IMG/VR virus record: IMGVR_UViG_2703718673_000007
Length of the DNA: 19,598 nt
Source of the DNA: a virus
Lineage: Duplodnaviria > Heunggongvirae > Uroviricota > Caudoviricetes
Direction: 5' to 3' (one strand)
Made by a program: the position numbers
Part shown: in pieces, positions 6,001-9,000 of the stretch
Layout of the letters: each line of letters starts with the position of its first letter
How positions within the stretch are numbered: position 1 is the first letter of the stretch

Positions 6001-9000
6001 GGGGATTTATCCGGCTGGGAAAACGACTGGGCTTTGAGCGAATGCCGGATGATGAGGATGGCTTCATGGTGTTCAGGATAGCGGTCTGACTGCTACAGTT
6101 TTCATCATTGTGTTTAAACCAACATTGTAATTCACATTCTGACCCTGCTCCGGCAGGGTTTTTTGTTATCCAGGGGGCCATTATGGGTGGAAGTAAAGGC
6201 GGTGGTGATACCAAAGTAAAACCAACAGCAGCGCAAATAGCACAGGAAGAAGTGGCCTGGAAAGGGTGGCAGGATTACAAAAATATCCTCCGCCCGGCTG
6301 AAGATAACTTCATGGAAAAGGTCGATGACCTGAACAGTGAGCAGCAGTACGACAATATTGCTGGCACCACAAATCTGGGGTATCAGAAACAGTTTGGCGA
6401 AGCACGGAAGGAGCTTGCGGGTAATCTTGCTCAGTCCGGCGTTGACCCATCCAGTGGTCGTTTTAATGCGGTAATGAATGCGAACCAGAGTGACCAGGTA
6501 ACCGGGCAGATTGACACAACCACACGGGGGCAGGTATCGCAGGCAGATAAGTATGTTGCCGGGCTACAGGATGTTGCTGCTCTCGGTTCTGGTCAGAAGG
6601 CGGATGCGTTACAGAGTTTTAACTCTCTGGCAGACAGCAGTCTGGCAAAAGCTAAATCGGATGCACAGGCGGCGTTTACGAAACAGCAGGGGCGAGCCTC
6701 TCTTGTTGGCGCTGGTCTGGGTGCGGCAGGTGCATATGCGATGCATAAGGCTGGCGGTAGCGGAGGAAGTGGCGGTGCTAAAACACCTGGCACCGGCGCT
6801 AATGCCATTCAGCATCAGGCTCAGAACTGGAGACTGTAATTATGGAGTATGGCAAATACGAAACTCTCGCAAGGGCTGGTTATTCAGGAGCAGACCGCCC
6901 ACAGGGTGACTGGCAGACGTCAGCAGCGCTGACACGCCAACAATACGACGACTGGCGAACCAGATATTTGCCCCGCGTGGCAAGGCTGGCTGACCTTGGG
7001 GAGAACAACAGTCTGATGAATGCACAGCTTGCACGGGTGGGAGGCCTTGCCACTTCCAGTCTCCGTACAGCGCAGATGGCGCAGGATAACCAGATGGCGA
7101 GATACGGGGTAAACCGCCCGGATAATCCCGACAGTAATACGCTGGGGTTACGTAATGCCCTGGCAATTGCTGGCGCGAAAAATGGTATCCGTGAAGCCGA
7201 ACAGGATCGCCAGATGAATATTCTGACGGGGGCTTCTGCACCGGCAAGACAGAAACTGAGTGTTGGCGGCCAACTGGTGGCAGCGTAAGGGGGCAATATG
7301 GGATACGGTTTACTGGATATTGCAAATCAGTCGCGGCGTGAGGCATTACAGGGAATAAGTGACGCAGACAGACGACGTGAAGAAATTGAGGCTGCGAACA
7401 AACAGATGGCGGCGCAACAGAAAGCGCAGAACAAGCAGAATATCGGTACGGGCATTGGTACGGGGGCGGCTATTGGCGCATCCGTTGGTGGTCCTGTTGG
7501 TGCTGTTGCTGGAGCAGTAATTGGCGGCATTGCTGGTTCTTTGTTTTAAGGAGTGGTGAATGAGCGGATTTGCACAGGGGTTACTTGCCGGATTCAGCAC
7601 CGTTGACCAGGCAATGACCCGTCGTAAGGAGCTTGGTCTGCGTGAAGCACAGCTTGCCCGGCAACAGAAAAATAACGAGCGCGATTTTGAGTTTGCGCAG
7701 TCTCAGTTTGAACATAATAAAAACGTTGATCAGCGGAACTTTGATTACAGAGCCAAAGTTGACGACCGTAATTATGCACTGAAGGAGAGGGAGTTTAACG
7801 CTAACCAGAATTACCGGAATGCGTCACTGGGTATGGAGCAGCAGCGACTCCAGTTGCAGAAATACAACCAGCGACGGCTTGAGTATAACGATATGATTGC
7901 CCATAGCCAGCCACTAATGGAAGCGCTTGGAAAAGCAATTGAGGCTGGCGATCAGGAGGCTGCAACGCGTCTGTTCGGGCAGCTGCCAAAGGGACATCCA
8001 TTAATTCTTATGTCAAACGAAGGCTATGCAGCGAAAGCGGGTCAGGCCGTGATCAACCTGCAAAAAATCTTTGGTGATAAGCCGGACATGGCGATCGATT
8101 CGCTGAATACCCCGGAAAATCTCGATGTGCTTTCCGGCGTGTTTGCCCCGGAACTACAACAGCGTATTGGCATGCCTGATTCAACCGGGGACAAAACGAT
8201 AAAAGAGGCCAGGATTGGCAGTATCGTACCAGCGCAGCAGGAAGGGTACGTACTTATTGGCCTTGATCTCACATACAGCGATGGCTCCACCGCGCATAAA
8301 CCTGTAACAGAATACGGCAGTGCGCACCCTGATGATCAAACCGTGCTGGCGATACCCGTTGATAAGGCTATCGCTCAGGTCAGGGATCGCAGCAAATTTG
8401 CAGAGATATCGAAAAATTATGGTTATTTTATGCCGAAGCAGCAGGGACTTTCTCTGAAAGAGCTTCAGAAGGGGGCCAGCAACGTAGCGGCGGACGCGAT
8501 CAAGAATGGCGGTAATGCTCAGGCTGCGGTGGATGAATATTATGCTGCGACTGGTTCACAACCGCATCAACAGAAAATTCAGCAACAAAAACTTCAGCAA
8601 CAGGTTATCAACTGGGCGGGAGATGATCCTGACAAGCTGTCATTTGCCAGAAATGTAGCGGCCCGTCAGCCTGAAATGCTGGAACCTCAGAATCAGAAAT
8701 TGCTGGAGAACGGGTATGCGAATTTTCTCCGTATTCAAAAGGCCAGGGGGGAACAGGCCAGAGATGAAAGTGCTTCATCTGCATCTCAGTTTATCCGTGG
8801 ACTGAAACAGAATTACGCCCAGTAATTCACGATATTCCATTAATACCATTTCCTGATGCCCGGCCATTGTGCCGGGTTTTTTTATGGAGTCTGTATGGCC
8901 TATTCAGAGGAACAGCGTCCTGAGGCGCAACTCGGTAACCAGAATCGTAACAGCCTGAACATTCAGCAACCCGGCGAAACTGACAGCTATGAAGCATTTT

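Follow-up and report, generated by a model that had tools for sequence, protein, structure and literature searches.

Two hairpins, T1 and T2, in the late operon of phage 933W are confirmed as genuine Rho-independent terminators by their anatomy, their excess over chance, and their conservation, and transcripts are expected to terminate at both. They are conserved punctuation between gene modules, not appendages of a moron. In the prophage, they likely stop RNA polymerase lacking modification by the antiterminator Q, and Q-modified polymerase likely reads through both sites after induction. The underlying principle is textbook lambda biology, and T1 and T2 belong to an ordinary lambda-style design.

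Location of the terminators in the late operon

The window, i.e., the whole stretch of 19,598 nt analyzed here, corresponds to positions 40170-59767 of the record of phage 933W (Stx2) with 100% identity. Q, pR', qut, and tR' are annotated at record positions 20205-20957, on the same strand and upstream of T1 and T2. The gene array from pR' to T1 and T2 is essentially co-directional; among the annotated genes, bor alone lies on the opposite strand. In Sp5, tR' has been confirmed by Term-seq (PMC7547250). The window thus belongs to a late operon of about 37 kb in a lambdoid phage, which is transcribed from pR' and controlled by the antiterminator Q. This supports a preliminary description of this DNA, which had likened it to lambdoid late operons under Q-type antitermination. 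The features at the two junctions are as follows.

125/133-aa gene (L0129, ECs_1237, phrog_610): 5712..6089, + strand; upstream of T1
T1 hairpin: 6141..6160, + strand; 8-pair stem (6141-6148 pairs with 6153-6160), loop UCCG, ΔG −14.5 kcal/mol
T1 U tract: UUUUUUGUU, 6159..6167, + strand; six U's at 6159-6164, then G, and UU to 6167
Start of the 218-aa gene (ECs_1238): + strand; Shine-Dalgarno GGGGG 6173-6177, ATG 6183-6185
Four late genes of 218, 148, 83, and 421 aa: 6183..8825, + strand; between T1 and T2, with gaps of 2, 9, and 10 nt
T2 hairpin: 8858..8877, + strand; 7-pair stem (8858-8864 pairs with 8871-8877), loop CAUUGU, ΔG −13.1 kcal/mol
T2 U tract: 8877..8883, + strand; 7 U (7-10 U in close relatives)
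Start of the giant gene: + strand; Shine-Dalgarno GGAG 8886-8889, ATG 8895-8897
Giant late gene (2793 aa; Sp5 ORF80, ECs_1242; LPD5-domain protein): 8895..17276, + strand
Terminator: 17737..17757, + strand; last sense-strand site of the census described below, 461 nt past the stop codon of the giant gene

T1 and T2 hence punctuate the modules ORF70-ORF71-p133, p218-p148-p83-ORF79, and the giant gene. By position, the 218-aa gene matches Sp5 ORF76; the 421-aa gene, which is the last of the cassette between T1 and T2, is Sp5 ORF79. Both ORF79 and ORF80 of Sp5 are essential for tail formation (PMC5155283).

Anatomy of T1 and T2

The preliminary description had placed the two terminators at 6143-6167 and 8858-8884; both hairpins and both U tracts are present, and these coordinates are correct within 2 nt. 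In T1, five of the eight pairs are G-C (in order: G.U, A-U, three C-G, U-A, G-C, C-G), and in T2, six of the seven. From canonical intrinsic-terminator geometry, the RNA 3' end at T1 is predicted at about 6165-6169; the end at T2 is predicted at about 8883-8886. In Sakai (NC_002695.2), these predicted ends correspond to about 1293293-1293297 and 1296011-1296014. On the reverse strand, a U tract is found at neither site.

The T1 stem begins 51 nt past the upstream 125/133-aa gene's stop codon and the T2 hairpin 32 nt past the stop codon of ORF79. Since a terminating ribosome masks a terminator within roughly 27-30 nt (PMC4824070), both stems lie beyond the masking distance. Each terminator ends 2-5 nt ahead of the next Shine-Dalgarno sequence, and the distance from the U tract to the ATG is 11-15 nt. 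This space had been described as leaving no room for a promoter, which agrees with our analysis, as it holds no promoter-like site. A scan of the + strand from 4616 to 17327, covering the sigma-70 consensus only, found no site scoring at least 9/12. Promoters hidden in the U tracts were considered and rejected on the basis of the hexamer sequences and the sigma-70 scan.

A strict scan (perfectly paired stem with 6 or more pairs, hairpin ΔG of −9 or below, and no fewer than 5 T among the 8 nt past the stem) identified 14 sense-strand terminators in record positions 19000-59767, the late region from Q to the end. By chance, 0.33 ± 0.54 sites are expected, with a maximum of 2 (30 dinucleotide-preserving shuffles). 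Twelve of the 14 sites are intergenic, and terminators like T1 and T2 are likewise located behind the genes for portal, major capsid, head, and tail fibre. The last site (17737-17757) is probably the end of the late transcript.

At a permissive threshold, Rfam gave no family at T1 or T2 and weak sok matches elsewhere. In the portion of the Hfq-bound sRNA tables (Tree 2014) that was covered, and in a coordinate-prefix search of these tables, nothing was listed at the T1 or T2 coordinates. A literature search by locus tag found no transcript mapping of the T1/T2 region.

The analysis corrects two start-codon annotations in the reference genome. For the giant ORF, comparison of the sequences places the start at ATG 8895 and not at 8856. 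The motif GGAG-N5-ATG at 8895 does not vary among the close haplotypes, two of the three close haplotypes of T2 have ATA or ACG in place of ATG 8856, and the Sakai annotation uses the start at 8895, giving 2793 aa. ATG 8856 also overlaps the first base of the T2 stem, so the clash between this start and the hairpin was noted correctly in the preliminary description.

Conservation among relatives

T1: The stem is unchanged in 56 close loci. In the distant loci L062 and L096 (2/6 sequences), one C-G pair is replaced by A-U, which is a compensatory change. The covariation score was matched by 90/500 shuffles, and hence a single compensatory pair is indistinguishable from shuffles. The region is 92-100% identical among close relatives. 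As T1 itself is nearly invariant, its conservation alone is not separable from that of the region.

T2: Close relatives show three pair-preserving haplotypes. The six outer pairs are intact in all seven distinct sequences, with pair 1 being G.U, A-U, or G-C and pair 6 being G-C, A-U, or U-A. These pairs were counted by script in a fixed register because MAFFT gapped the 20-nt hairpins. Among 11 close haplotypes, 20 of 32 columns are variable in the spacer, 5 of 14 in the stem, where no pair is broken, and 3 of 22 from the U tract to the ATG. The pairing of T2 is thus maintained by compensatory substitutions. In the distant relative L103, an unrelated hairpin occupies the T2 site.

Both terminators are kept even in relatives whose ORF79 homologue shares only about 40% identity. 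In a Vibrio phage, a terminator follows the gene of the ORF79 homologue, and about 85 nt with a TATAAT separate it from the giant gene. The homologous-protein listing comprised relatives of at least 80% identity, and a single scan of genome contigs gave one 552-bp fragment. When compared with annotated phages, the distant loci gave no DNA match.

All relatives carry the 125/133-aa gene upstream of T1, even where lom and hok are missing. Within this gene lies a further element, which is conserved in distant relatives.

Terminator-like hairpin with U tract: 5789..5816, + strand; inside the 133-aa ORF, 78 nt past ATG 5712, z = −3.6

Relation to the lom/hok moron block

The preliminary description had assigned to the terminators the purpose of insulating lom and hok, two morons expressed in the lysogen, from the silent late genes. 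The moron block (4524..5631) contains the following elements.

lom: 4524-5258, + strand
lom's own terminator: 5282..5300, + strand; followed by UUUUUU
hok-family gene: 5491-5631, + strand; with a Sok-like antisense region

This purpose is not supported as stated, since lom has its own terminator. In addition, the whole ORF72-ORF73-lom-hok block is missing from the relatives L096/97/99, in which T1 and the p133 homologue are nevertheless retained. We therefore rejected the reading that T1 terminates the lom/hok moron. Insulation of a moron does not account for T2 either, as T2 follows an essential late gene and the segment between T1 and T2 holds no moron. The rationale of moron insulation is hence only partly right. 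Of the earlier interpretation as a whole, the Q-type late operon, the promoter-less gap, and the silent downstream genes are retained, and the insulation of lom and hok as the purpose of T1 and T2 is not. The first part of the ORF72-ORF73-lom-hok block is AT-rich, with 35-43% GC from 3400 to 4900. In Phi24B, lom is constitutive and expressed from the prophage, and the clone CM19, derived from the p133 region, was detected with lysogen antiserum (PMC3342100). For p133 itself, no promoter was found.

Expression upon induction

Phi24B is 99.6% identical to the window at 8650-9100. Its giant gene is induction-linked and its lom is not (PMC3342100). At the one time point available, the genes behind T1 and T2 showed fold inductions of 8.3, 7.0, 7.3, and 5.6; the change of the giant gene was not significant (P = 0.31), nor was that of lom, at 3.0 (PMC4651098 Table S4). 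Both studies support that the genes behind T1 and T2 are induced together with the prophage and that lom is not. Because the downstream genes are essential and induction-dependent and lom is not, read-through of T1 and T2 by Q-modified polymerase is well supported, and it would be Q-dependent at both sites.

Proposed role and alternatives

In the prophage, RNA polymerase without Q modification would halt at T1 and T2. Such polymerase could come from the lom or hok promoters or from stray promoters. The terminated transcripts would stop 2-5 nt short of the next Shine-Dalgarno sequence, and the cassette of the 218-aa to 421-aa genes and the 2793-aa tail gene would therefore be silent. Upon induction, Q would load on the polymerase at qut, and the Q-loaded polymerase would pass T1 and T2 as well as seven or more further intergenic terminators, so that the essential tail genes are transcribed. 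We consider this the likely role of the two sites. It would help to explain how 13 kb of tail genes are silent beside the constitutive lom and hok, yet expressed after induction.

If Q-modified polymerase ignores T1 and T2 and there is no promoter between them, it is not obvious from silencing why T2 is so deeply conserved. As a tentative alternative, which can coexist with silencing in the prophage, the main selected role, especially of T2, might be quantitative tuning during lytic growth. Either a modest fraction of polymerase would be lost at each terminator even with Q, or the hairpin would shield the 3' end of the processed upstream mRNA; in both cases, the costly 8.4-kb message of the giant gene would be rarer than that of the preceding cassette. 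T2 is located between two essential late genes, and the stretch from T1 to T2 holds neither a moron nor a promoter, which is consistent with tuning, as are the conservation of a terminator at this junction out to the Vibrio phage, the different hairpin in L103, and the terminators behind the portal, major-capsid, head, and tail-fibre genes. P22 provides a precedent, in which transcription running through the ant moron is believed to determine how much tailspike is made (PMC2629481). Fold induction also steps down, being 15.5-15.8 ahead of the moron block, 7.0-8.3 past T1, and 5.6 past T2, but these steps are ratios of fold changes and not transcript levels, and the drop at T2 is small and not significant. 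They are also non-monotonic, as the 51-fold genes 33-35 come after the 28-fold gene 31. Moreover, Q-modified polymerase of lambda passes terminators very efficiently, which speaks against tuning.

Read-through would be unnecessary if the genes after T1 and T2 had an unrecognized promoter of their own, which could overlap the terminator or sit in the upstream gene and could use another sigma factor or a phage activator. The scan sees sigma-70 consensus sites alone, and the Vibrio relative has the TATAAT mentioned above. However, the gap between U tract and ATG is just 11-15 nt, the second position of the U-tract hexamers is not the A that is conserved in the −10 element, and the + strand from 4616 to 17327 has no site of at least 9/12. 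Transcription from a promoter upstream of the hairpin would be stopped at that very hairpin, and expression of the giant gene tracks induction like that of other late genes. We therefore regard such a promoter as very unlikely. The explanation that the hairpins are functionless chance structures or recombination scars could draw on the near-invariance of T1, which is not separable from the conservation of its 92-100% identical region. It is effectively refuted by the census (14 sites vs. 0.33 expected), the compensatory changes in T2, and the unrelated hairpin that L103 carries in place of T2; in addition, the spacer diverges, and the stem, the U tract, and the Shine-Dalgarno sequence are kept.

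Returning to selected roles, a broader and rather doubtful proposal is that the terminators of the tail/ejection module form an old regulatory layer in its own right, maintained by selection. This layer would comprise T2, found from Stx to Vibrio phages, and the hairpin in the 133-aa gene, where synonymous sites are frozen. It might determine in what ratios the modules are transcribed or link transcription to the translation of that small gene, independently of moron insulation and perhaps even without Q.

Comparison with known systems

Lambda: The terminators at D|E (6099-6116) and lom|stf (19612-19633) resemble T1 and T2. Each is a strong sense hairpin with a U tract, ends about 11-12 nt before the next late ATG, and is embedded in an operon that Q-modified polymerase transcribes. 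The lom|stf terminator follows lom, whereas T1 of 933W is separated from lom by the hok module and the conserved 133-aa gene and persists in relatives without lom. T2 has no counterpart in lambda because the tail modules are unrelated (podovirus vs. siphovirus).

T7: T-phi follows the major capsid gene and is partly read through, as measured, with more of the upstream than of the downstream message. Like T1 and T2, it is a terminator within a late gene array. In contrast to 933W, T7 relies on a polymerase of its own and works without an antiterminator.

HK97/HK022: Juhala et al. in 2000 reportedly described the moron as a unit of promoter, gene, and terminator inserted between late genes. The ORF72-ORF73-lom-hok block of 933W resembles such a moron, as it is AT-rich at first, absent in some relatives, ended by terminators, and contains the prophage-expressed lom. 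T1 and T2 differ from this type in that they do not come and go with a moron and flank conserved virion-module genes.

tR': The StxS terminator of 933W/Sp5 is intrinsic, lies in the same operon as T1 and T2, and is overridden by Q (PMC7547250). It differs in being the regulatory switch point beside qut, where termination yields a functional sRNA; at T1 and T2, the covered portion of the Hfq-bound sRNA tables lists none. The coordinates of T1 and T2 mark where existing Term-seq data of strain Sakai (cited in PMC7547250) could gauge Q-modified read-through 25-28 kb from the loading site.

P22: The ant moron lies before the tailspike gene and, like T1 and T2, inside a Q-type late operon, where it is believed to influence the number of late transcripts that get to a downstream tail gene (PMC2629481). 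In P22, this effect is credited to a multi-gene regulatory moron with repressors, whereas 933W has a single bare terminator.

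Genes and terminators of the region

Between positions 5400 and 9300, the window matches Escherichia phage 933W at 100% identity; at least 80% of this stretch is covered by each of 186 phage records. Positions in the 933W record equal window positions plus 40169. Gene coordinates were taken from RefSeq and related annotations. Upstream of the window genes, the same strand carries the annotated Q (record 20205-20678), pR', qut, and terminators.

549-2252 and 2249-3517, plus strand: two tail genes (annotated)
Between the tail genes and lom, plus strand: two small membrane-protein genes (annotated)
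4524-5258, plus strand: lom (annotated)
5491-5631, plus strand: hok-family gene (unannotated)
5712/5688-6089, plus strand: 125/133-aa gene (p133; annotated)
6183-8825, plus strand: four closely spaced genes, encoding 218, 148, 83, and 421 aa (annotated)
Ending at 17276, plus strand: giant gene (annotated)

In strain Sakai, the six genes from the 125/133-aa gene to the giant gene are ECs_1237 to ECs_1242.

T1: The terminator before the 218-aa gene has a stem of eight pairs (6141-6148 with 6153-6160), a UCCG loop, and a ΔG of −14.5 kcal/mol. The stem is followed by UUUUUUGUU to 6167, GGGGG at 6173-6177, and ATG at 6183.

T2: The terminator before the giant gene has seven pairs (8858-8864 with 8871-8877), a CAUUGU loop, and a ΔG of −13.1 kcal/mol. 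Seven U's to 8883, GGAG at 8886-8889, and ATG at 8895 follow.

On the opposite strand, both T1 and T2 lack a U tract. Their z-scores in 81-nt folded contexts were unremarkable, as expected for short local hairpins; hence, significance was tested by a census. Perfect stems of at least 6 pairs with a hairpin ΔG ≤ −9 and a T at no fewer than 5 of the 8 following positions were counted in 933W record 19000-59767, with thirty dinucleotide-preserving shuffles as the null. The sense strand gave 14 sites against 0.33 ± 0.54 in the shuffles (maximum 2), and the antisense strand 6 against 0.83 expected. Anatomy and census thus bear out the preliminary description, which had placed a hairpin plus U tract before the Shine-Dalgarno sequence and ATG of both genes. 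The sense-strand sites are:

Directly after qut: one hairpin
After the tRNA genes: one terminator
After stx2B: two sites
Within the portal gene: one weak site
After the portal gene, the major head gene, and the next head gene: one site each
After the tail-fibre C-terminal gene: one site
After lom: 5282-5300
Within the 133-aa gene: one site
T1 and T2
461 nt beyond the stop codon of the giant gene: the last site

On the 3' side of the major head gene, the arrangement hairpin-UUUUU-CAGGAG-N8-ATG has the geometry found at T2. In lambda, the same census detected a hairpin plus U tract between D and E (6099-6116; E ATG at 6135), further sites after E, at I/J, and at J/lom, and one between lom and stf (19612-19633; stf ATG at 19650). 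As similar sites occur in both phages, a terminator abutting the next late gene start is a design common to lambdoid late operons and not peculiar to T1 and T2, which belong to a well-known class but are themselves uncharacterised. New here are the terminator census, the conservation of module boundaries out to Vibrio phages, and a conserved terminator within a coding sequence.

The 933W hairpin after qut (record 20723-20744, GAACCCGCCGATGCGCGGGTTT) is identical but for one loop base to a lambda hairpin (4484-4505, GAACCCGCCTATGCGCGGGTTT) located within gene C, 47 nt past the portal gene B.

Start codons

At 8856, where RefSeq begins the giant gene, the ATG lacks a Shine-Dalgarno sequence, and its G is the first base of the T2 stem. 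In two of three close haplotypes, this codon is ATA or ACG. GGAG-N5-ATG at 8895 is invariant among the close haplotypes, and this start is annotated in Sakai, giving 2793 aa. The suspicion that the 8856 start lies inside the hairpin is therefore confirmed. The same kind of annotation error affects ST933Wp56, whose annotated start (record 36283) falls within a terminator hairpin at 36273-36291 (17273-17314 in locus L058 corresponds to record 36273-36311); the true start is likely ATG 36311, after GGGG. The annotated ATG at window position 51 is doubtful because it lacks a Shine-Dalgarno sequence and lies only 8 nt past a bidirectional terminator (20-42; AAACCGGAGCCCGGCTCCGGTTT between runs of A and of T), which is 3' of the tail-fibre C-terminal gene.

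Conservation of T2 and T1

The T2 intergenic region occurs as 11 distinct haplotypes among 56 close loci. The three hairpin forms (GCCCGGC/GCCGGGT, ACCCGGT/GCCGGGT, and GCCCGAC/GTCGGGC) all retain seven pairs, with pair 6 changing from G-C to A-U and pair 1 from G.U to A-U to G-C. In these haplotypes, variation affects 20 of 32 spacer columns but only 5 of 14 stem columns, with pairing preserved in every stem change, and only 3 of the 22 columns between the start of the U tract and the ATG. Close loci share an invariant T1 stem, the sole weakened one (a G-to-T change) being that of L009, from phage phiSTEC1589-Stx1c. An extra 1.2-kb gene (2440-3651), annotated "terminase large subunit" and probably an insertion element, separates hok from the 133-aa gene in this locus.

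Distant relatives were IMG/VR loci reached via representatives of the 421-aa protein (~35-40% identity). Gene order is unchanged, and terminators are found at both junctions. At the T2 site, loci L062 and L096 have GCCCGG-CATTATGA-CCGGGY, and L103 has an unrelated hairpin, GAGCCTGC-TTAT-GCAGGCTT. At T1, L062 and L096 show one compensatory change (C-G to A-U), but its covariation score is reached by 90 of 500 shuffles and does not stand out from chance. Members of a group of Vibrio phages with the same module carry a terminator (GAAGCCCGC...GCGGGTTTT, then CTTTTG) directly 3' of the homologue of ORF79 (the 421-aa gene, in the numbering of the Sakai prophage Sp5), with ~85 nt between it and the giant gene; an equivalent of T1 is absent in them.

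Read-through, module boundaries, and insulation

By Term-seq in Sp5, the terminated transcript from pR' ends 258 nt downstream of the promoter, at a terminator that Q is described to override (PMC7547250). Systematic in-frame deletions in this prophage showed that ORF79 (ECs1241) and ORF80 (ECs1242, 2793 aa; the giant gene) are needed for tail formation; hence, both must be transcribed in the lytic cycle. Deletion of ORF76, by position the 218-aa gene, lowers lysogenisation (PMC5155283). Phi24B, whose gene map we verified, is 99.6% identical to window 8650-9100. Its lom is equally expressed in lysogens and induced cells, and its giant gene follows induction despite lying downstream of lom (PMC3342100). 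RNA-seq after norfloxacin (PMC4651098, Table S4) gave the following fold changes:

vb_24B_40 and _41, before the moron block: 15.5-15.8
lom, in the moron block: 3.0 (not significant)
vb_24B_44, _45, and _47, behind T1: 8.3, 7.0, and 7.3
vb_24B_48 (giant gene), behind T2: 5.6 (P = 0.31)

Each stem begins more than ~27-30 nt past the upstream stop codon, the distance that frees a terminator from masking by the terminating ribosome (PMC4824070). Unmodified polymerase would be expected to halt at T1 and T2, and Q would carry it through. Read-through by Q-modified polymerase, as proposed in the preliminary description, is the best explanation and well supported by essential, induction-linked genes behind Q, pR', and qut, with both the stop and the passage at these two sites inferred.

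The proposed insulation of lom and hok held only in part. In three related loci (L096, L097, and L099), the block ORF72-ORF73-lom-hok is wholly absent; the ORF71 homologue overlaps at its end with that of the 133-aa gene, and these loci retain T1. As lom moreover has its own terminator (5282-5300), we rejected T1 as the terminator of the lom/hok morons. In 933W, T1 would still act as the last barrier behind them. T2 follows ORF79, an essential late gene, and a scan for sigma-70 consensus sites found no promoter-like sites between T1 and T2. The conserved layout is three terminator-separated modules: ORF70-ORF71-p133, p218-p148-p83-ORF79, and the giant gene.

If only Q-modified polymerase ever reaches T2, pure silencing explains its deep conservation poorly. 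A second role in lytic growth, either slight attenuation at each terminator or 3'-end protection of processed upstream mRNA, is plausible, though less likely than not, and compatible with Q read-through. It fits the stepwise fall of fold induction along the operon in Phi24B and the proposed tuning of tailspike expression by the ant moron in P22 (PMC2629481); however, the Phi24B values are fold changes taken at a single time point, and they are not monotonic. If either role is true, the 8.4-kb giant-gene message should be rarer than that of the preceding cassette.

G+C content is 35-43% over 3400-4900, where both genes for small membrane proteins and the first portion of lom lie, and ~50-57% in the flanks. 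This block, missing in L096, L097, and L099, fits a horizontally acquired moron block. At the equivalent position (~2140-2420), L062 has another hok-family gene, behind which a very strong terminator (ΔG −21.6) ends ~7 nt before the next Shine-Dalgarno sequence. This junction thus seems to be a recurrent place for hok modules whose terminators abut the next gene.

Hairpin within the 125/133-aa gene

A terminator-like hairpin at 5789-5816 (plus strand; 10-11 pairs, ΔG −15.8, z = −3.6), followed by UGUUUUG, lies within this gene, 78 nt past ATG 5712. Relatives in which the protein has only 65-70% identity keep it, and its nine codons show only 1-2 synonymous changes, against many in other conserved peptide stretches. 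A terminator can be efficient when it lies within the first 100 bp of a coding region (PMC4824070), and this hairpin may be a translation-sensitive attenuator.

hok/sok-type module and proposed antisense RNAs

A second hok/sok-type module, unannotated in the 933W RefSeq record, occupies 5342-5665 on both strands. The ORF 5491-5631 matches Pfam HOK_GEF (E = 4e-8), and 5342-5504 gives a weak Rfam sok match. The 20-nt "24B_1 microRNA" published for Phi24B lies at 5417-5398 of the minus strand, and the promoter predicted for it (−35 at 5486-5481, −10 at 5464-5456) is just upstream of the hok start and directed away from it. Sok antisense RNAs are arranged in this way, and 24B_1 is therefore probably a piece of a Sok-like antitoxin RNA.

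In the Hfq crosslinking tables of Tree 2014, ECs1242 ranks 17th among genes, and the second column of its pair is larger in every sample (e.g., 1456 vs 26613). Most genes have zero in this column, and we therefore read it as antisense counts. On this reading, the giant gene (8895-17276, minus strand) would somewhere contain an abundant antisense RNA bound by Hfq.
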